Below are positions 7,455 to 16,744 of a DNA stretch of 42,272 nucleotides, piece by piece. This stretch comes from a virus. Its lineage: Duplodnaviria; Heunggongvirae; Uroviricota; Caudoviricetes. The notes under the pieces were generated by a model. That model had not been told where the DNA came from. It searched no databases and saw only the letters and a program-made list of their open reading frames with translations. Positions within the stretch are counted from its first letter, which is position 1, and each line of letters opens with the position of its first letter. The DNA is taken from the IMG/VR virus record IMGVR_UViG_2529292726_000021; one strand, written 5' to 3'. The position numbers and the translations under genes are program-made.

Positions 7455-7658
7455 TTAAATAGAATTTTGAAGTTTTCCGATTAATGCGCTTAAACGTAAG
7501 TATTCACGTTTACGCTTGCAATCTCGCTTGCTGTTAAGCAAATCAGAAAACGTAAAATTTAATTGGTCGCGTTGCGCGATTAAATCATTGATTAATTCTA
7601 GTTTATAAGCGCGATACTTTGCGCGATATTCCGCGCGGATCTTGTCATAGCTGACCAT
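7455..7658 (-). CDS. hypothetical basic protein B (67 aa), AT-rich cassette
   Basis: Start moved to ATG 7658 with AAGGAG 8 nt upstream; the track start at 7703 lies inside an intergenic hairpin. Confidence 0.5.
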   Translation of the reverse strand: MVSYDKIRAEYRAKYRAYKLELINDLIAQRDQLNFTFSDLLNSKRDCKRKREYLRLSALIGKLQNSI

Positions 7659-7706
7659 TTTTAAAGCTCCTTTAAAGCGCCCATAGTGGGCGCTTGATTC
7701 CATTAA

Positions 7707-8357
7707 TTACGCTTTGAAAGCATCAGCTAAATAATTGTAGAAATCATTTTTAATGAAGCGATATTGCTGAGTACCAGCTTTCGCGCTCCCAGCTCCTTTG
7801 ACTTTTTCAACAAGTCCAAGACGTTCGCAAAGATTGATCAACTGGTTGGCTTGAGTATAGCCAGCGTCCAATTTAATTTCACACGCTTTTTTAGCTTCAT
7901 TCATTAAATCGAAAACAGCGCCATTCGTGAACGTGTCGATCTCGTCGTTAATCATATCGATTAAAGCGAATACACGAGATCCAGACATATCAGCGACGGA
8001 ATAAACACATTTACCAGCTTTAATGGATTTAACCAGATAAACCAGTTTTTCCAGTGAATAACTATTAGTCATTGCATCACGGAAAAATACTTCTGGCGCT
8101 TGTTTACTTGCTTTAATCGCATAGTAGAAAACAGAGCATAATTTTTCGTCTTCTACTGCGTTTACGACGTTGTTGATGAAGTAAGCAAGTTTCGTGGTCG
8201 CAGCTTGCATGTTTGCTTTGTCTGCTTTTGTGTGCGTACCATTTTTATAATGTTCGTTATATGTTTGAGTTGCCAGATCTGCTTTTTCGCGCAGTTCATC
8301 GGATACAATGGAAGCAGCTTCAATGATGGATTTTTTAGAAATGATAATGTTAGTCAT
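7707..8357 (-). CDS. hypothetical protein A (216 aa), AT-rich cassette
   Basis: ATG with AAGGAA upstream; no recognisable catalytic motif; AT-rich codon usage. Confidence 0.6.
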   Translation of the reverse strand: MTNIIISKKSIIEAASIVSDELREKADLATQTYNEHYKNGTHTKADKANMQAATTKLAYFINNVVNAVEDEKLCSVFYYAIKASKQAPEVFFRDAMTNSYSLEKLVYLVKSIKAGKCVYSVADMSGSRVFALIDMINDEIDTFTNGAVFDLMNEAKKACEIKLDAGYTQANQLINLCERLGLVEKVKGAGSAKAGTQQYRFIKNDFYNYLADAFKA

Positions 8358-8655
8358 GATTTTATTCCTTAGTATAAATATTAAAATTTAACTCAAGAAA
8401 GAAAGTGTTTTGCACTCGTTCCTGATGCGTTCAATTATCGATACGCGAAAAAAGATTGCAAGTGTTTTTTTTAAGTTTTTTTGCAGGGGTGAAAGTCCTA
8501 GAAATAAAAGTTAGATCGTCGAAGGTGTTCCCTAAATAAATAATAAATTCCGGCTTTTGACCTTATATATTTATACGGGGGAGAATTGAATGAGTGTTAA
8601 ACGAATGGCATGTAAAATAATAACCGGACTTAGCCGATTATTACCCTTATAGAAA

Positions 8656-9174
8656 TTAAAACGGAAGGATTCGTTCAACCCAATCGAAGAAAATAAGTAT
8701 TTTTCTACCGTCTTCCAACTTAAGTGTGACTAGACAGGCGTCAACGCCATCTGACGTTCCCTCAATTTCGCGACCGTCTGCCATGTAGACCCTTATAGAT
8801 TTGCCGTTTTGGTAAGCCTGACGACATATCTTAAAAAAGTCACGACGTGATGGCTGATTAACCATCTGTTCATTGTTTAGCGTTAGTCGACCTGTGAATG
8901 AAGTGTCAACCTCTTCTATGCCCGACTCAATTGTGCTAATGCGCTCAAGAGGGAGCCTTATACGATTTGTGTTGCTAAGCGGATCTGGTGTGAGGTTCAG
9001 CTTATTTCTTGCGCTCAATAGCCCGTAGACATACATGCAAAACACTTGGCCGTCTTCGAGAGTGACTCTTACAGGAAATTTTGCACTCCGCCAGAAGAGC
9101 AAGGTGCGCTCAGCATGTTCGTAGTCTCGCGGCCAGACTTCAGCCGGTATGCCGTAGGTGATGTCTTTAACCAT
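8656..9174 (-). CDS. hypothetical protein (172 aa) with internal repeat
   Basis: ATG with AAGG upstream; two related segments (VRVTLEDGQVFCMYVY and VTLKLEDGRKILIFFDWV). Confidence 0.55.
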   Translation of the reverse strand: MVKDITYGIPAEVWPRDYEHAERTLLFWRSAKFPVRVTLEDGQVFCMYVYGLLSARNKLNLTPDPLSNTNRIRLPLERISTIESGIEEVDTSFTGRLTLNNEQMVNQPSRRDFFKICRQAYQNGKSIRVYMADGREIEGTSDGVDACLVTLKLEDGRKILIFFDWVERILPF

Positions 9175-9276
9175 AGTCTACCTTTTTAAGTCTTTTTTGG
9201 TCATTATATACATCTCTATGATGCGTAGACAGACTAACCGTACATTCCACCAAAAATTGATTATGGAATAAGTTTC

Positions 9277-10077
9277 ATGAAGAATGGGGTGAATAAAAAA
9301 TACTCATTAGCATTGTTAATAGCGGCTTTACTATTAACAGGTTGTGATTCTGATGAAGAGCGAGCCATAGATCTAGTTGAAAAGGATATTCGCTCTACAC
9401 TGCTAGATCCTGATGCTGGTCGGTTCACGAATATGCGAGCTATTCAGTTAGGTGAAAATAGCTATTCATATATGGTATGTGGAGAGGTGAATGGTAAAAA
9501 CGTCTTGAACGCCTATACAGGTGCGACCGCATTCAATGCACACATCTTTGATGTTCGTGAACGTAACCCGATTGTATTCGTTGCAATGGATAAAAGTACC
9601 AACTCGGCAAGAGAACGATTACGTTTTGAACGCCAAAATCTAGCATGTAAAGAAAATGGTGTGAAACTTTATCTGGAAAACGAATCTAAAATCAGGAAGG
9701 AAAAAGAGAAAATAGATGATTTAAAAAAAACTCCATTAGGTCAGGCTGTGTTTGATGCTGCAAGTGATTCGACATATGTGAGTAGAGAGTTGGGCGAATC
9801 GAGAGGTGTTAGTGAAGTGTATGCAAGAGAAAATGATAAATATGCTCTTGTTAGCGTCACCAATTATGACACTCCTGACTTTTACAAATTTAGGAAAAAA
9901 GACAACGGTGAACTAGAACCTGTTAGGGGACTGTCTTATACCGGCTATCCATTCGCGGTTACACTGTGCCATTCTGAACAAACAGATTATGACAAATGTA
10001 TAACAGAAGAAGAAATCAAGTTGCTTCGAGACGAAAAGAATAAGCTCGATGATTTTGTCGTGCCACCAGAAGAATAA
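9277..10077 (+). CDS. putative lipoprotein (266 aa)
   Basis: N-terminus MKNGVNKKYSLALLIAALLLTGC has a signal peptide and lipobox (LTGC) with Cys at residue 23; AT-rich. Confidence 0.65.
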   Translation: MKNGVNKKYSLALLIAALLLTGCDSDEERAIDLVEKDIRSTLLDPDAGRFTNMRAIQLGENSYSYMVCGEVNGKNVLNAYTGATAFNAHIFDVRERNPIVFVAMDKSTNSARERLRFERQNLACKENGVKLYLENESKIRKEKEKIDDLKKTPLGQAVFDAASDSTYVSRELGESRGVSEVYARENDKYALVSVTNYDTPDFYKFRKKDNGELEPVRGLSYTGYPFAVTLCHSEQTDYDKCITEEEIKLLRDEKNKLDDFVVPPEE

Positions 10078-10137
10078 CATATACAAAATATTTAATTGCT
10101 GTTAATATTTAATCGTTCAGACATAGGGAAAGTCCGA

Positions 10138-10171
10138 ACCCTCGACAAATCTTTCTGATATTGTCGAGGGT
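10138..10171. terminator. hairpin between convergent genes
   Basis: ACCCTCGACAA-atctttctgata-TTGTCGAGGGT between the lipoprotein stop (10077) and the minus-strand gene stop (10190). Confidence 0.5.
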
Positions 10172-10189
10172 ATGCTTCCAAGTGATGAG

Positions 10190-10543
10190 CTACTTATACC
10201 CTAATTCTTTACAGCTTTCTTCAAAAACCTCTTTAGGTAGGATATTTAGATCTACAATAGTGTTGCTGTTCTTGGTTAACACGTCATTGTAAGGAATTTG
10301 TACCCATCTGTAACCTGTATACCCACCATATGAGTTAGTCGCATTTAGTTTGAAACAATATGTATTGCTACCTTCAACGTGATCTGGGAATTTGTATTTA
10401 GCTGCATCCGGGGCCAGTAATTGTTTTTCTATAATATTTTTAATGTAATCTTGCTGAACGGGCGTTAAAGGTTTGGCTACTGTATTTCCTATATAGAATG
10501 CCAAGAGTGCCATAGAAAAAAATTGAATTTTTTTAGACTTCAT
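10190..10543 (-). CDS. putative secreted small protein (117 aa)
   Basis: From ATG 10543 the N-terminus MKSKKIQFFSMALLAFYIGNTVA is a typical signal peptide; the track start at 10564 is a TTG without SD. Confidence 0.55.
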   Translation of the reverse strand: MKSKKIQFFSMALLAFYIGNTVAKPLTPVQQDYIKNIIEKQLLAPDAAKYKFPDHVEGSNTYCFKLNATNSYGGYTGYRWVQIPYNDVLTKNSNTIVDLNILPKEVFEESCKELGYK

Positions 10544-10571
10544 CTTTTTAACCGTCTTTGACAATGAGAGT

Positions 10572-11147
10572 TTATGAGCGTTTGTTGAGCAGATCTACAA
10601 TCAGCTTTTGAGGTGTATTTTCCTCTTTTGTCTTAGGTAATCCATTCTGAGGTAGCGTCGATAGTCTGTTCTTATCTCCTCTAGGTAACTCAAGCCTTTT
10701 CTTGATCTGCACAATAAGTTCCCATAGACTGTCTTCGTTCTCAACCTTTATAGAGTAGCCTACGCCACAATATGAATCACTTTTTAAGCGATTGTGAATT
10801 TTGAACGTATTGAAGTTTGAGCTTAACTGAATATATCCTGGGGTAATACCATCTATACTTTCGATCACAGGAAGTATTTCTTTTATCTGGAAAGGGAAAA
10901 TGACCAATGAATAATCATCTCGTCTTTCCTCATTGTCTGGTGAAATTAAATAAATGTAGTAAGGGTTGTTTTTTGAATAAGATTCTCGTAATGCTGAACT
11001 CTTTCCGAAGTAGAAACCTTTAGCGTGAATTTTATCTTTCGTTTCTTTCCCCCGTTGTATCTGAATGTTATTTTCGCTAAGTGTCCCATTTGATACATAT
11101 GAAGCTTTATCCAATATCGTGTGAAGTTGTGTATTTGAAAGAGCCAT
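10572..11147 (-). CDS. hypothetical protein (191 aa)
   Basis: ATG with AAGGGA 8 nt upstream; no motif recognised. Confidence 0.6.
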   Translation of the reverse strand: MALSNTQLHTILDKASYVSNGTLSENNIQIQRGKETKDKIHAKGFYFGKSSALRESYSKNNPYYIYLISPDNEERRDDYSLVIFPFQIKEILPVIESIDGITPGYIQLSSNFNTFKIHNRLKSDSYCGVGYSIKVENEDSLWELIVQIKKRLELPRGDKNRLSTLPQNGLPKTKEENTPQKLIVDLLNKRS

Positions 11148-11291
11148 TAGCTATCCCTTCGACCAAACTCAGCGATGAAGCCTACAAATATCATTCAGCC
11201 AATCAAGAATTTTTTTCAGCCGGAGGTGTGCACTTCAAAAAATGTGATGAATGTCACATGCAGGTGCTCTCATACACCTGCATGTAGACTA

Positions 11292-11858
11292 TTAATCATT
11301 CAATAATCTATATTTTCTTTTGATTAAATCTTCACCTTTTTTGGTGAACACAAAACCAAATTGCGATTTTTTGTTCAGCCTAAGGACTCTGTTATCCAAC
11401 GCATCGGTTGATGGAATCAATGTTTGATCATCTATCCAATTTAGTAGCGTAAGAAAGTTCAGCAGCCTCAACGTTGTTGTGCGAAGCTCTTTCGATATAT
11501 TTTCAATGCTGGCAATTCGTCTTTCTTTTTTCTCAGGTAGTACAGATAATTGTTCTTGAGGTTTCGTGGATAGATAATCAATTTCGTTTGCAGCATCGAA
11601 TGATATGTGTGGCGTTATTTTGCTAAAAAAGCCTTTCGCTGACTCACTTGATAATAAACCAGACCTATTCATATCGTTTGTTATTCTGTACAGGAGTGGA
11701 CTGTGTTTCATTTCAGGATAACGTTGATAAAAGTTAAGCAATTCAAAAGCAGCATTAGCGCCAACAAGAAAATCAGAAGGATCGCTGACTTTCCAGAAAG
11801 AATGATTTTTCTTAGCGCCAGTGGTGTCAACAAATGATAATTCTTTTAACCAACTCAT
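11292..11858 (-). CDS. hypothetical protein (188 aa)
   Basis: Start moved to ATG 11858 (AAGGAG 7 nt upstream); SD and start lie inside a 10-bp-stem inverted repeat (11859-11890). Confidence 0.55.
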   Translation of the reverse strand: MSWLKELSFVDTTGAKKNHSFWKVSDPSDFLVGANAAFELLNFYQRYPEMKHSPLLYRITNDMNRSGLLSSESAKGFFSKITPHISFDAANEIDYLSTKPQEQLSVLPEKKERRIASIENISKELRTTTLRLLNFLTLLNWIDDQTLIPSTDALDNRVLRLNKKSQFGFVFTKKGEDLIKRKYRLLND

Positions 11859-11923
11859 GATGTGCTCCTTTCTAACAAGTGAGCACATCATAGAATTAGT
11901 AGATAGGGGGTAAATATAAAATG

Positions 11924-12202
11924 TTACGGCAACCTGCTCAGTATTTCCTCTAAATCTTTTTTTGTCATATTGGAGTTTTCATAGATGCGCATGATTTTCT
12001 CACGCGTCTTAGCGGAAACCCCAACGGCAGATGTGACTTTGTCAAATTCAGCCATAGTCATCGTCTCCAGAATGGCATTGATAACTTCAGCCTTAGACAT
12101 CTTGATTTTTTTCTCTTTGAGTTTTATTTGGAATTTTCCAAGTTTTTCATTGGCCTTATCAGACAATGCCACTTGGCAATAAGTTGTTTTCTTTTCGCTC
12201 AT
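11924..12202 (-). CDS. hypothetical small Lys-rich protein (92 aa), possibly DNA-binding
   Basis: ATG 2 nt after the helicase stop (translational coupling); 5' coding region contains AAGAAAACAACTTATTG, resembling the early motif. Confidence 0.5.
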   Translation of the reverse strand: MSEKKTTYCQVALSDKANEKLGKFQIKLKEKKIKMSKAEVINAILETMTMAEFDKVTSAVGVSAKTREKIMRIYENSNMTKKDLEEILSRLP

Positions 12203-12204
12203 AA

Positions 12205-13764
12205 CTAATCTCGTTTCAGAACTCCAAAATCGAATGCGCCATCAATAGGCAATACACCTTCCGCAAAGCCAGGTGTGGTGTCGATGATGTGTTTTCGCTC
12301 ATAAGAGTGAGACAACAGGTATTTGTTGCTAATGTCAATGAAATCAGTGATAAAACACACGTTTGCCTGATTCTTCTTGGCTCGTAAGCCACGACCGACA
12401 CGCTGCCTCATTTCAACTTCTGCTTTCCCACCACCAGCAAGAATGACCGCACCAACGCTTGGCACATCAACACCGACATCCAGAATAGTCGAGCCTATTA
12501 AAACATCTATTTCGCCAGACGCTAAACTGTTCAGCTTTGCTTGCCTTGTCGACTGGTTCGATTCCCCATAAATGAAGTCAACTCTAAGGCCGGACTCTTT
12601 CATCATTTCCATCAGGATTTGCCCGTGGCGTTTAAGACGAACCAGAGTCATACAATTGAGAGAATGTTGCTTATAGAGCAATGCTTCGCGAACAATGGCC
12701 TCATTACGTCCCAAATTATACACGATCCCCAACTGATAAGCCTTTTGGTAGGCGGTGCTCATACCAACTCTAAAATTGAGGTGTTTGTTGGCAAGTTCTG
12801 CCTTGATTCTGGCCTCGTCCGGCTTGTAGGCAACTTTATGATAAAGGAAGTATGGTTTTGCCAGAATGCCTCGATCAATCAGGTACTTTTCTGTGACTTT
12901 AATTTCAATTCGCCCGGCCACAGCCATCAGACGCATGTTGGCTTCTGTAGAATCCTTCATGAACGGCGTGGCCGTAAGCGCCAGACGATAGTCTGCGTTC
13001 ACACATAATCTGGCAATGTCATAGAAATTAGAACCTGAAGACTCATGCGCCTCTTCCAGAATAAGCAGAGACACACTTGAAAGGAAGCGTTTCACCAAGT
13101 CCCGACGTTTGAGGTGGTAGCTCTTCTTATCTGGAGTTGCATCGCGTGGTGGTTCTTCAAGGAAACTTGCCAGAGTTTGAACTGTAGCGACGTTGATATG
13201 TCGTGATACCTGGAACTCACCAGAGCCAATGACTCCAACCTTTTGGTCTTTTAACCACGGTTCGCCATTTTCGGCGCGGTAGTCGATGGATCTCTGGAAG
13301 TTTTCGGCCATCTGAAACATCAGAACAGAGCGAGTTGTTAAAAATAATGTCATTCGACCGATACGTGCAGCCGCTTTGCAGGCAACATTAGATTTCCCGC
13401 CACCAGTAGCGATCTGCGCAATCATCATTCCCTCTCGAACCAGTGTTTCCACAGTCTGATCCTGATACGCATAATCAGGATTGTATGGGAATGGGTTAAC
13501 CGCCGGATTTGGTTTACCAAGCGCCGGGGCTTTGTCTTTGCGGATATGAACACATTTGATGCCCGCCTTGTTCAAGTTCGCCGCTACAGGCTTGGCAAAG
13601 CCAGCAGGGAACGAGTTTTTACTCCAGTTGAACATTGTGCTTGTGCCCTTCCAGTCGCCAGTCTCGACTTCGTAGCTCAACATCTGTTGCACCAGTTGCT
13701 TTACCTTGTCATCTGCGCCAGAAATAAGCGCATTAACTGCGTTAGATACAATCCGAACAGTCAT
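12205..13764 (-). CDS. superfamily 2 DNA helicase (DEAH-type)
   Basis: Motif I ATGGGKS, motif II LEEAH, motif III TATP, motif VI RVGRGLR in order; AAGGAAAGAGG upstream of ATG. Confidence 0.75.
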   Translation of the reverse strand: MTVRIVSNAVNALISGADDKVKQLVQQMLSYEVETGDWKGTSTMFNWSKNSFPAGFAKPVAANLNKAGIKCVHIRKDKAPALGKPNPAVNPFPYNPDYAYQDQTVETLVREGMMIAQIATGGGKSNVACKAAARIGRMTLFLTTRSVLMFQMAENFQRSIDYRAENGEPWLKDQKVGVIGSGEFQVSRHINVATVQTLASFLEEPPRDATPDKKSYHLKRRDLVKRFLSSVSLLILEEAHESSGSNFYDIARLCVNADYRLALTATPFMKDSTEANMRLMAVAGRIEIKVTEKYLIDRGILAKPYFLYHKVAYKPDEARIKAELANKHLNFRVGMSTAYQKAYQLGIVYNLGRNEAIVREALLYKQHSLNCMTLVRLKRHGQILMEMMKESGLRVDFIYGESNQSTRQAKLNSLASGEIDVLIGSTILDVGVDVPSVGAVILAGGGKAEVEMRQRVGRGLRAKKNQANVCFITDFIDISNKYLLSHSYERKHIIDTTPGFAEGVLPIDGAFDFGVLKRD

Positions 13765-13846
13765 AAACCTCTTTCCTTAGTGCCTTTTGTATGTTATTTG
13801 GCTATTATAATAAGTAAGTGATTACTTAGTGGATTGTAGCAATAAA

Positions 13847-14527
13847 ATGGATGTAAAAATCACGATTTTGCAGGTTGATGTTGCCAACCTTCGCCCGAAT
13901 ACCTGGAACACCAATTCGGTTGGTGCGCAGAATTTTGAAAAACTGAAAGGTTCTATCGAAAAATTGGGCTTTTTTAAGCCAATTTTGGCTCGTGAACTTG
14001 AAGATGGATTTTTTGAAATCCTCGGCGGCGAACATCGCTGGCGTGCCGCTATTGAGCAAGGAATTTCAACGGTTCCAGTGCTTTCTGTGGGCAAAATTAG
14101 CGATGTCGTAGCTAAACAGATGTCACTGGTGGACAACGAGCGATACGGTGAAGACGACCAAATCGCATTGCAACGCTTCATTGAAGAAATTCAGTCAGAA
14201 CTTGACTATCAACTGTCTGAAATCGCCCCGTATGACGACGAAATCTCGATGGTTTTAGCAAAAGAGGCGGCAATCGACCTTGAAGCACTGGAGGCGTTGT
14301 CTCGTGGTAGTGATGAGCCTGTCGATACCGACAAACGAGAGAAAACCGAACGTGTCGGTGCGGAACATCAGACCATGCGCTTCAAAGTAACTTTCGATGC
14401 GTCAGATCGCGTTGCAGAAACCATAAAAAACATCATCAAAGAGCAGGCTATTAACACCGGTAATGAAATGGAGAACGCTGGTGAGGCTCTGGTGTGGCTG
14501 GTCGACTACTACAAGGAGCGTATGTAA
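13847..14527 (+). CDS. ParB-like N-terminal domain protein
   Basis: GGEHRWRAA resembles the ParB/sulfiredoxin GxxRxxA box; start ambiguous (GTG 13829 or ATG 13847). Confidence 0.55.
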   Translation: MDVKITILQVDVANLRPNTWNTNSVGAQNFEKLKGSIEKLGFFKPILARELEDGFFEILGGEHRWRAAIEQGISTVPVLSVGKISDVVAKQMSLVDNERYGEDDQIALQRFIEEIQSELDYQLSEIAPYDDEISMVLAKEAAIDLEALEALSRGSDEPVDTDKREKTERVGAEHQTMRFKVTFDASDRVAETIKNIIKEQAINTGNEMENAGEALVWLVDYYKERM

Positions 14528-15195
14528 TGACCAAAAAGTTTGAAATCGTATATCGCGACCCGGCAGATCTTATTCCCTATGAGATGAATGCCAAAAAGCA
14601 TGATGAACAGCAGATCAGAGATCTGGCCGCAGCCATTAAAAAGCGCGGATTTGACCAGCCAATTACGGTCGATAAGAACGACGTAATTATTACTGGCCAC
14701 GGCCTCCGTGAGGCTGCAATTTTTGCTGGACTTGAGCGCGTACCGGTTATTGTTCGTGATGATCTGAGTGATGACGAGGTACGTGCAAAGCGCCTTGAAG
14801 ATAACCGACTTGCCAGCATTGATTACGATGCAATTAAGCTACAGAAAGAGCTTGAGTCGCTTGTTCTGGACGATATCGAGGTTTTCGGCTTCGAAGAGCG
14901 TGAGTTGAATGTTCTCGTTGGCAGTATGACAGAAGAAATGGACACCGACTCGCTAGTTATCGATCTTGGCGAAGAAACTAAACGACAGAAGGATGAACAC
15001 ACCGAGATCAGTCGTGAAGTTGCAGCGGAAGAAGTACGTGTTGTCGACGTATTGGGCTTTAAAACGCTTCCTGCTGGCTCTGCCATTGTTGTTGGTGATT
15101 TGCTTGCCCACATGGAAGAAATGACGGGAGAAAGCGGGGTAGACGCATTTGTGGCATATGCGGAGAAGATCTCTTCCGGGGAGATGGCTGCATGA
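14527..15195 (+). CDS. second ParB-like domain protein
   Basis: TGHGLREAA box; ATG overlaps the preceding stop (TAATG); track start 14494 would overlap the upstream gene. Confidence 0.5.
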   Translation: MTKKFEIVYRDPADLIPYEMNAKKHDEQQIRDLAAAIKKRGFDQPITVDKNDVIITGHGLREAAIFAGLERVPVIVRDDLSDDEVRAKRLEDNRLASIDYDAIKLQKELESLVLDDIEVFGFEERELNVLVGSMTEEMDTDSLVIDLGEETKRQKDEHTEISREVAAEEVRVVDVLGFKTLPAGSAIVVGDLLAHMEEMTGESGVDAFVAYAEKISSGEMAA

Positions 15196-15857
15196 GCAAA
15201 TACATCATCAACGTATCGTTTCAGACACGCGTAAATAAAACCACGCGCACGTTGGAAATCGCTGAGTCGTTCGGGCTTGGCCTGGACGAAAAAGAGTGGA
15301 CGCTTTACGACAATCTGGAGCTGGAAGTGAAGCAGGGCGATGTGGTGTACATCACCGGCCAATCCGGTTCCGGCAAATCCGTTGTGCTGCGCGAGTTGCA
15401 ACGACAGATGAAGGATGAAGGGCTGTCTGTAGCCTCCATCGATGATTTTACCTTCGATAATGAGGTTAACGTCATCGATCAGTTGGGCAAAACGACCAGT
15501 GATGCGCTTGGGTTGTTATCTATGGCTGGTCTGAACGATGCATATCTGTTTGTTCGCAAGCCTTCTGAAATGTCAGACGGCCAGAAATATCGTCTCAAGA
15601 TTGCCAAACTGATTGAGTCAGGCGCTAAAGTATGGGCTGCTGACGAGTTCGGCGCTGTTCTAGACCGTGTAACCGCTCAGGTTGTGGCGTCTAACCTCCA
15701 GCGTGCCGCTCGAAAGGTTGGTGCGACGGTAATGGTGGCGACGACTCACGAAGACCTGAAGAACGCGCTGCGCCCGGATATGCAGATCACCAAGCACTAC
15801 AAAGAACGCGTGAAGGTGGAATATCACAATGGTAGTCATGATGAGGTCCATTCATGA
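15192..15857 (+). CDS. compact ABC-type ATPase (221 aa)
   Basis: Walker A GQSGSGKS, signature-like SDGQ, Walker B VWAADEFG, H-loop ATTHED; ATGA overlap with upstream gene. Confidence 0.65.
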   Translation: MSKYIINVSFQTRVNKTTRTLEIAESFGLGLDEKEWTLYDNLELEVKQGDVVYITGQSGSGKSVVLRELQRQMKDEGLSVASIDDFTFDNEVNVIDQLGKTTSDALGLLSMAGLNDAYLFVRKPSEMSDGQKYRLKIAKLIESGAKVWAADEFGAVLDRVTAQVVASNLQRAARKVGATVMVATTHEDLKNALRPDMQITKHYKERVKVEYHNGSHDEVHS

Positions 15858-16744
15858 CGGACATCATCATTAAACGCTACCGCCCTGAAGAGTTTCCGCG
15901 TCATCTGGACTTTCTGGAGCGAATGACTGTTACAAAGGGAACTGTAGAGGACTGGCACGCTCTTAAGTCGCTTCACTACAAAACAGACGGCAAACCTTTC
16001 GCGCCAACTTACTATCGCTGCGAACTTGATGACCGTCTGGTGGGCGTCGTGGTTATGGCTTACCCGAAACTACTGCTGGCACCTCGCCACCGCATGTTTC
16101 CTAAGTTGAAACCAACCACTAATACCACCGTGGCTAACCAGTACTGGGGTCGGTACGTGAATAACAACTTTGCGGTGATCAGTCGCTCAGTTGTGGATAC
16201 TCAGTATCGTGGCGTAGGCGTCTCTTATCGAATGATTAACCTGGTTAGCAGGATGCATGACCGGCCAATCATTGAGATCCAGTCCTCGATGAGCAAATAC
16301 AATCCCTTCGCCATGAAAGCAGGGTTTAAGTTCATCCGCCCTGAGCGACCGAAGAGCTATGAAAGTGCACTGCGTGTATTCCAGCGCCATTTTCGTTCCG
16401 ACCCGGGTGATAACGAGGCGATCGTCAAAGAGTTGTTCGCAATGAGCGAGTCTCGTCGTCGCCGTGCACTGCGTGATCTGGTGGCGGACTACCATAAGAA
16501 CAGTTCCCTGGCAAAAGCTGGGCGGAATCGTGGCACGACGATTCAGGACATTGCCGACAGTCTGGTGGACGAGGCCAGCATTGTGAAGTTGCTCAAGGAC
16601 ATTCACAACCTGAGCTTTACGTCTCCGTTGTATGGGGTGTATCGAAACCCTGACTTTGGTCGTCGACTGCCTGACACGCTGCCACTGCTGGCATTCGACA
16701 AACAACCTTTGGATAAACCGTTAGAAATTGCTTTACCGGCATAA
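15854..16744 (+). CDS. GNAT-like acetyltransferase-fold protein with C-terminal extension (296 aa)
   Basis: VVDTQYRGVGVSYRMINLV fits GNAT motif A (Q/R-x-x-G-x-G/A); ATGA overlap with the ATPase gene. Confidence 0.45.
   Translation: MTDIIIKRYRPEEFPRHLDFLERMTVTKGTVEDWHALKSLHYKTDGKPFAPTYYRCELDDRLVGVVVMAYPKLLLAPRHRMFPKLKPTTNTTVANQYWGRYVNNNFAVISRSVVDTQYRGVGVSYRMINLVSRMHDRPIIEIQSSMSKYNPFAMKAGFKFIRPERPKSYESALRVFQRHFRSDPGDNEAIVKELFAMSESRRRRALRDLVADYHKNSSLAKAGRNRGTTIQDIADSLVDEASIVKLLKDIHNLSFTSPLYGVYRNPDFGRRLPDTLPLLAFDKQPLDKPLEIALPA

Follow-up and report, generated by a model that had tools for sequence, protein, structure and literature searches.

The window analysed here is the whole 42,272-nucleotide (nt) virus sequence IMGVR_UViG_2529292726_000021, whose matches place it among the SSU5-like Escherichia coli phage-plasmids. 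The subject is a group of four minus-strand genes in the AT-rich accessory arm of this element, encoding proteins of 92, 188, 191 and 117 amino acids (aa). The reading that we favor, with a probability of about 0.55, is that these genes belong to two expression units: unit 1, in which the 188-aa gene would be masked at the level of translation by an RNA hairpin, and unit 2, in which a conserved promoter would drive swappable cargo, here the 191- and 117-aa genes.

Over positions 10000-12500, identity is 100% with E. coli plasmid CP025888 and 99.9% with Escherichia phage PhiR41_1. This region is matched by 221 plasmids, which are about 105-115 kb in size and predicted to be non-mobilizable, and also by phage Cyrano (pLF82). 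The annotation of these relatives, with ParB-like genes, an ABC ATPase, a helicase and an FljA-like “repressor of phase-1 flagellin”, is that of an SSU5-like phage-plasmid. G+C content is 35-40% across 7500-12200 as compared to 45-49% in the helicase and ParB genes. SSU5-like phage-plasmids are frequent in clinical E. coli, Shigella, Salmonella and Klebsiella (10.1101/2025.09.12.675607), this arm is annotated only as hypothetical proteins, and the literature on SSU5-like elements yielded no description of the locus.

Unit 1 would comprise the helicase, the 92-aa gene and the 188-aa gene, together with the following elements.

12205-13764, minus strand: helicase, first gene of unit 1, 519 aa, DEAD/ResIII type (UvsW-like; Pfam ResIII 1.2e-14, DEAD 2.8e-14, Helicase_C 3.7e-13), annotated as a helicase in relatives
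11924-12202, minus strand: 92-aa gene (phrog_1466), a backbone gene
11849-11900, minus strand: RNA hairpin I3, about 19 bp, with perfect 11-bp arms at 11857-11867 and 11881-11891, recognized by fold and conservation
11887-11914, minus strand: promoter-like hexamers TTTACC and TATGAT separated by 16 nt (9/12 matches), the -10 hexamer (11887-11892) lying within the 5' arm of I3
11292-11858, minus strand: 188-aa gene (phrog_13473), reading frame open to 11891
11256-11285, minus strand: RNA hairpin I2 (ACAT, variable stem, ATGT), an 11-bp perfect stem with arms at 11256-11266 and 11275-11285 (z = -4.6), at the proposed 3' end of unit 1

The 92-aa gene is closely coupled to the helicase, as the sequence-only reading of this stretch had proposed, with the helicase stop at 12205-12207 and the 92-aa ATG (12202) only 2 nt beyond it, and it would be transcribed in the plasmid-prophage state. 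RNA-seq data are available for Cyrano, in which the 92-aa gene is identical (CYRAN_117) and the 188-aa gene 98% identical to those of the window. In overnight lysogeny broth (LB) culture, mean values in fragments per kilobase per million reads were 46 for the helicase, 114 for the 92-aa gene and 9 for the 188-aa gene (PMC9928086 Table 1 and S1 Table). Transcription of CYRAN_117 in the lysogen was 12-fold over the prophage background (PMC9928086), and the 188-aa gene lay 2.8-4.9 log2 units below the 92-aa gene in 10/10 samples (PMC9928086 S1 Table). RNA in Cyrano falls 8-30-fold across I3 (from PMC9928086 S1 Table).

Hairpin I3 has a minimum free energy (MFE) of -29 kcal/mol (z = -6.2), and none of 200 shuffled sequences folds as well (0/200). 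Its 3' arm holds the GAG of the AAGGAG Shine-Dalgarno (SD) sequence and the AU of the AUG of the 188-aa gene, confirming the earlier observation that both lie inside an inverted repeat. The hairpin forms in every clade with the 188-aa gene, at -22 to -30 kcal/mol and in four genera. Its core contains a single clean compensatory change, a CG<->GC swap, while the outer stem co-varies with codons 2-3 of the 188-aa gene (AAC/GUU, AAU/AUU and AGC/GUU, the last with a G-U pair). With one clean core covariation, we consider the support from compensatory changes to be moderate. I3 looks regulatory, with the start of the 188-aa gene as what it would mask. The proposal of regulated translation at this start was thus strengthened, as the hairpin recurs with compensatory changes in four genera and coincides with the 8-30-fold drop of RNA in Cyrano.

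In transcripts arriving from upstream, I3 would pair the SD sequence and AUG with the upstream arm, therefore ribosomes could not start and the 188-aa gene would be almost silent. The untranslated message would probably be lost through Rho-dependent polarity and decay. Translation of the 188-aa gene would then be expected only from transcripts lacking the 5' arm, generated either from a candidate internal promoter or through RNase III cleavage. The TTTACC/TATGAT pair is a hypothetical promoter of the 188-aa gene itself; because its -10 hexamer lies within the 5' arm of I3, a transcript from it, starting at about 11880, would lack that arm and be unmasked. The promoter scan behind this candidate has low specificity, with 14 sites as compared to 9.0 +/- 3.2 expected. 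A pyrimidine motif, TTT(A/T/G)CCCC (11900-11925, minus strand), is found at a fixed distance upstream of I3 in all clades, including the same place in the relatives’ loci L004, L007 and L010 (loci of relatives are numbered with an L), and may represent a -35-like element or have another identity. A start at 11891, which would give a 199-aa isoform of the 188-aa protein, was rejected, as it lacks an SD sequence and in other clades the upstream AUG is not in frame. I2 would mark the 3' end of unit 1. Silent in lysogeny under what appears to be a conserved translational mask, the 188-aa gene is a candidate switch gene.

The 92-aa gene was found in SSU5 and in Klebsiella and Salmonella relatives, with identities of 35-89%. 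Its product had no Pfam or PDB match, and a PDB profile search returned no family. A ribbon-helix-helix assignment, an idea from the sequence pattern alone, was rejected, with no Pfam match of this class among eight members, no PDB profile match and an hhalign E of 0.59 against Arc. The 188-aa protein has two conserved domains with a variable linker between them. Across the relatives compared, its gene is semi-conserved, occurring in a subset and absent from SSU5, where the 191-aa gene is also missing and the order is helicase, 92-aa gene, canonical terminator, lipoprotein gene and FljA-like gene. AP026520 shows a clean deletion of the 188-aa gene that leaves I3 and the last codons (3' end). 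Pfam ANT/KilAC (PF03374) matched one of seven members of the 188-aa family (E 0.04, short of the gathering score). Identity with Ant was rejected as hhalign against P22 Ant gave an E of 0.41, that is, no similarity, and a profile search of genome contigs with the 188-aa profile found no relatives. The two genes are backbone genes shared with relatives, as would be expected of the ordinary accessory factors that the sequence-only reading had set against its own proposal, but their products were not identified as replication or recombination factors.

About 115 nt following the 188-aa stop align across Escherichia, Klebsiella, Cronobacter and Salmonella. They begin with I2 and continue into the control elements of the proposed unit 2, which are listed here with the cargo.

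11243-11258, unstranded: palindrome TGTGA-N6-TCACA, a perfect CRP consensus and the sole match in the 42-kb window, even with one mismatch allowed
11179-11226, minus strand: putative promoter block with CCTCCGGCTG and an A-tract (11210-11226), -35 TTGATT (11201-11206), a 16-nt spacer and -10 TAGGCT (11179-11184), in columns invariant across four genera
10179-11176, minus strand: variable cargo segment, delimited by blastn breakpoints and swapped or deleted in relatives
10572-11147, minus strand: 191-aa gene (phrog_29155), predicted cytoplasmic product, type A of a locus-specific family
10190-10543, minus strand: 117-aa gene (phrog_2320), predicted exported (periplasmic) product; a TTG at 10564 would give 124 aa

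I2 had been described as a terminator-like hairpin preceding the 191-aa gene. The hairpin itself, a GC-rich stem-loop, is real, but it is not a canonical intrinsic terminator, as the T6 run begins about 14 nt past the stem and the terminator scan made no call. In the alignment, 98.5% of cells are paired and 7/12 pairs have changed on both sides, which none of 500 shuffles equaled (0/500), and controls with slid alignments were 17-49% paired. The G-U pairs of I2 suit the minus-strand transcript only. An integron attC-like site was rejected as an identity for I2, with the cargo junction about 80 nt away and no integrase context. A search of 9000-14500 against Rfam returned no family.

The palindrome noted earlier as operator-like could be given a more specific description. 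Its CRP-like pentamers are kept, with the N6 free, in 27 of 30 distinct intergenic sequences, and the other three have single-base variants. In the distant elements L042 and L044 a CRP-like box is located 44-45 nt upstream of a TTGACC -35, the spacing also seen here, despite diverged sequence between the two. The CRP consensus, AAATGTGATCTAGATCACATTT, is fitted by the Klebsiella palindrome at 19/22 positions. The spacer between -35 and -10 is 16 nt in all variants, and the -10 is always TAG(G/C)CT. Nearly all intact variants have the start of the first cargo gene 28-35 nt past the -10, the Klebsiella type having it at 19 nt if an upstream ATG is used, and the variable sequence begins right after the -10, at about +1. 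From this conservation we infer a promoter that drives interchangeable cargo. Unit 2 would therefore consist of the CRP-consensus box, the A-tract, the -35 TTGATT and the -10 TAGGCT, a block common to Escherichia, Klebsiella, Cronobacter and Salmonella, followed by the exchangeable cargo, and in most relatives its promoter would also read into the FljA-like flagellin repressor gene. Such a promoter, possibly cAMP-CRP dependent, would express whichever cargo sits behind it. On the opposite strand, an antisense promoter-like site (11285-11314, plus strand; TAGACT, 18 nt, TATATT) would read antisense into the 188-aa gene, and the CRP box would be centered at -70.5 relative to it. This geometry was found in the E. 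coli and Cronobacter clades, and the -10 of the site overlaps conserved Lys-Tyr codons.

Comparison by blastn with Cyrano and CP027369 gave sharp breakpoints at 10178/10179 and 11176/11177, and the complete 191+117 segment is present in only 13 of the 221 plasmid records. Other relatives carry alternative cargo in this slot, including a 377-aa HNH protein, a 162-aa protein with a 199-aa exported protein in the p09EL50 type, a 180-aa protein with a 139-aa lipoprotein, and a 196-aa exported protein preceded by what is left of the 162-aa gene. Slots that appear to be empty are best described from their sequences as deletion remnants: the slot of Cyrano/pLF82 (L002 6179-6349) retains a 5' remnant, the first codons, of the HNH gene, and pYPE3 (L014) and L030 retain the 5' end of the 162-aa gene. 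A pair of 191-201 aa and 117-118 aa is kept in Klebsiella and Cronobacter relatives, and a Salmonella relative has a 198-aa homologue paired with the 196-aa exported protein. With cytoplasmic types in capitals and exported types in lower case, the pairings seen are A+a, A+b, B+b, C+c and D alone, which indicates that the two kinds of gene are shuffled independently; such independent recombination, as read from these sequences, argues against an obligate two-component system. No SD-masking hairpin was found for the 191-aa gene of the window (z 0.36 and 0.70). The HNH/Cyrano-type leader (L002, L003) has an SD-sequestering hairpin, CCUCCGAA-GAAA-UUCGGAGG (-15 kcal/mol, z -2.8), and so does the Klebsiella-type leader (L004), CCUCCAUUU...AAAUGGAGG (-15 kcal/mol, z -2.3).

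The 117-aa product has an n-h-c signal peptide by inspection (MKSKK, IQFFSMALLAFYIG and NTVA/KP, the slash marking cleavage), and cleavage in its relatives would fall at ALA/AKP or AFA/AKP. This bears out the signal peptide claimed for the last gene, and the protein is predicted to be Sec-exported and periplasmic. Two cysteines, C63 and C111, are invariant in the eight-sequence 117-aa family, which comprises seven clusters. The protein shares 25% identity with the N-terminal domain of the neighboring lipoprotein (BLASTP E 2e-4) and both match phrog_2320, suggesting that it is a weak paralogue of the lipoprotein’s N-terminus. Its structure model is a generic alpha+beta roll. An envelope-directed exclusion or conversion role of this exported protein is possible.

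The family of the 191-aa protein is, as far as its sequences place it, restricted to one locus and one element type. Its invariant residues (P85, S110, N111 and glycines) are not catalytic-looking. The structure model of the 191-aa protein (predicted local distance difference test score, pLDDT, 63) has a YgaC/DUF2002-like alpha+beta fold (PDB 2g7j) and differs from YgaC by extra N- and C-terminal segments. Pfam searches with 13 members of the family gave no YgaC/DUF2002 signal, and a BFVD search with the model gave nothing at E <= 0.001. The N-terminal 45 residues of the family (2-46) align to the ClpC D2-small domain (PDB 6emw, E 6.5e-4), and one member matches Pfam ClpB_D2-small at E 0.16; this likeness was set aside as too short to interpret. 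For the four proteins together, Pfam, NCBIfam and PDB sequence searches returned nothing usable. PADLOC-DB v2 hidden Markov models did not match the 92-, 191- or 117-aa proteins, a match of the 188-aa protein to SspC (E 0.0041, 12.8 bits) was dismissed as noise, and the alternative cargo proteins had no PADLOC match besides a generic HNH match. The role that we consider most likely for the cargo is a lysogeny-expressed accessory (moron) function acting on the host envelope, motility or superinfection, possibly timed by cAMP-CRP.

Between the cargo and the FljA-like gene, the window has a plus-strand lipoprotein gene. It encodes 266 aa (9277-10077), is convergent with the 117-aa gene, and is present as two open reading frames in L024. 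The FljA-like gene (8656-9174, minus strand) is full-length (PF03614, E 1.3e-68). In most relatives the FljA-like gene overlaps a preceding exported-protein gene and lies in the cargo operon. A further hairpin is found at the left edge of the conserved flank.

10138-10171, unstranded: hairpin I1, 11-bp stem (z -3.35), between the convergent 117-aa and lipoprotein genes

I1 belongs to the flank common to relatives without the cassette, and would be a bidirectional 3'-end element.

Several observations weigh against the two-unit reading. The RNA evidence comes from Cyrano, which is without the 191+117 cargo, and the start site, CRP binding and translation in the window are predicted. Only in the E. 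coli clade does the candidate internal promoter look convincing, and it is weak elsewhere; the -10 TAGGCT of unit 2 is also weak (3/6). Assuming a start 7 nt past this -10, the putative CRP box would be centered at -78.5 (variants -73.5 to -80.5), and because canonical class I CRP positions are -61.5, -71.5 and -82.5, the box is off the canonical phasing; it may instead serve the antisense promoter or aid termination. The link of the 191-aa protein to YgaC comes from one medium-confidence model, with hhalign of the family profile against YgaC at a non-significant E of 0.17. YgaC itself is an enterobacterial cytoplasmic protein with no function described in the YgaC literature. In addition, the I3 core is near-invariant in sequence, which a DNA operator would explain as well. 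The inverted repeat at 11857-11891 would then mainly be a binding site for a dimeric regulator, such as the 92-aa product or a prophage repressor, rather than an RNA block. The 10-bp core stays near-invariant across genera while the I2 stem drifts freely, and the repeat overlaps promoter-like hexamers. However, the outer stem varies together with codons 2-3, the one change in the core is compensatory, the SD sequence and AUG account for part of the invariance of the 3' arm, and the 92-aa protein has no detectable match to a DNA-binding family. We regard an operator as improbable as the main function of the repeat, and it would be compatible with the RNA reading. Doubtful, but somewhat easier to credit, is the proposal that TGTGA-N6-TCACA and its T-run form a weak second hairpin of a composite unit 1 terminator instead of a CRP site. 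The palindrome does directly precede T5-6 in most variants and overlaps the 3' arm of I2 by 3 nt, but its pentamers are conserved and its N6 free with no covariation, next to an I2 that covaries freely. The MFE fold does not include its stem, which would consist of 5-7 AU-rich pairs, the terminator scan made no call for it, and the Klebsiella version has the fit to the CRP consensus described above.

Alternatives that group the genes differently were also considered. The sequence-only reading had put all four genes in a single minus-strand operon, as a module acting at the envelope in defense or exclusion. The genes do share one strand with short gaps and include one exported product, the slot holds an HNH nuclease in some relatives, and a Klebsiella SSU5-like plasmid as a whole lowers foreign DNA uptake (PMC8969562). 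The four open reading frames, both hairpins and the palindrome were found where that reading had placed them, and two of these sequence features are clearly under selection, but the four genes do not behave as one operon: all relatives, SSU5 among them, have the 92-aa gene, a subset has the 188-aa gene and 13/221 plasmids have the 191+117 pair, the second and third genes are separated by a covarying 3' hairpin (I2) and a conserved promoter block, and RNA drops more than 10-fold between the first and second in Cyrano. The four-protein module is not sustained either, with no PADLOC match above noise, no meaningful Pfam or NCBIfam match, a backbone gene in the 92-aa gene and replaceable cargo in the 191+117 pair, so that we consider this alternative very unlikely. 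If the defense function is confined to the 191+117 pair, as a new anti-phage system of two genes, acting by abortive infection or superinfection exclusion, with a cytoplasmic sensor or effector and an envelope protein, the case improves, yet still falls well short of probable. The two genes are inherited together, at 47-62% identity, in Escherichia, Klebsiella and Cronobacter, and the slot shows rapid turnover. The N-terminal part of the HNH variant aligns to the 191-aa family (hhalign E 1e-4, probability 57%), and its HNH domain is weakly like type IV restriction HNH domains. On the other hand, there is no defense-family match, the partners are exchanged (with A+b in Salmonella, b occurring by itself, and some family members directly before the FljA-like gene), the invariant residues do not look catalytic, and the family is in one element type only, unlike most defense genes. 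We also weighed, and judge slightly less plausible than the anti-phage pair, a motility or flagellin-conversion operon formed by the 191-aa family and the FljA-like repressor, with the exported proteins as extra surface-conversion factors. A family member is located directly, or one exported gene, upstream of the PF03614 FljA-like gene in nearly all relatives, often with overlapping stop and start, and the shared promoter has the CRP box; CRP also activates flhDC. The lipoprotein and FljA-like genes of Cyrano rise together outside overnight LB culture (PMC9928086 S1 Table). However, the plus-strand lipoprotein gene separates cargo from FljA-like gene in the window, L045 has a family member without an FljA-like gene, and SSU5 has an FljA-like gene without a family member.

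The two-unit reading can be extended to a broader one, which is speculative and in our judgment unlikely, in which the CRP-box promoter and its cargo form a platform specific to SSU5-like elements that reprograms the host envelope or motility, or excludes superinfection. The cargo of this platform would be the locus-specific cytoplasmic family (including its HNH-fused form), diverse exported proteins and the FljA-like repressor, and the 191-aa family would represent a new functional class, perhaps of sensors or adaptors coupling an intracellular signal to exported or nuclease effectors. The locus in any case contains a very narrow protein family linked to exported proteins and a flagellin repressor, and with the operon model corrected, experiments can be aimed at the right units.

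Two further observations concern the element as a whole. Seven of the 13 cassette-bearing records are E. albertii plasmids (CP034165, CP043239-CP043255, CP126909) of 62-64 kb, as compared to the usual 105-115 kb, and these may have arisen from the phage-plasmid by deletion. Divergent from the helicase, the region 13829-16744 (plus strand) holds two tandem ParB/Srx-like nuclease-domain genes, then an ABC-type ATPase and then a 296-aa gene, an order kept in all relatives.

The arrangement proposed for unit 1 resembles two known systems. In the fold-back inhibition of IS10 and IS50 transposase, read-through RNA sequesters the ribosome-binding site, and transcripts from the transposase gene’s own promoter start inside the hairpin. 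Likewise, the upstream arm of I3 would pair the SD sequence and AUG, and the candidate -10 TATGAT lies inside the 5' arm. The 188-aa gene differs in that it is not a transposase gene, its internal promoter is a candidate that is weak outside E. coli, and no antisense RNA is known here. In the immI regions of P22 (arc - sar - ant, as read from NC_002371) and P1 (c4 - icd - ant), a small regulator gene is followed by RNA-level occlusion of the ribosome-binding site of the next gene and by polarity on the silent gene. Shared with these phages are a small upstream gene expressed in lysogeny, an intercistronic RNA element over the ribosome-binding site of a silent gene, and loss of RNA downstream. 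The element here would be a hairpin acting in cis, whereas theirs is an antisense RNA acting in trans, and since the 188-aa protein is unlike Ant and the 92-aa protein unlike Arc, the resemblance is one of architecture only.

Unit 2 is reminiscent of the moron or accessory hotspots of temperate phages, such as the variable defense slots of P2/P4-like elements. It has a fixed place between conserved genes, fast replacement or deletion of its cargo, an AT-rich composition and likely expression in lysogeny. It differs in having a promoter and leader outside the cargo that are conserved across genera, and a cargo in which a single locus-specific family predominates alongside exported proteins, and in which known defense genes are lacking. 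Finally, in Salmonella fljBA an exported flagellin gene is followed by the gene for the fliC repressor FljA, and in most relatives of the window an exported-protein gene likewise precedes, and often overlaps, a full-length PF03614 gene. The upstream products here are not flagellins, and in the window the FljA-like gene is set apart from the cargo by the lipoprotein gene on the opposite strand.

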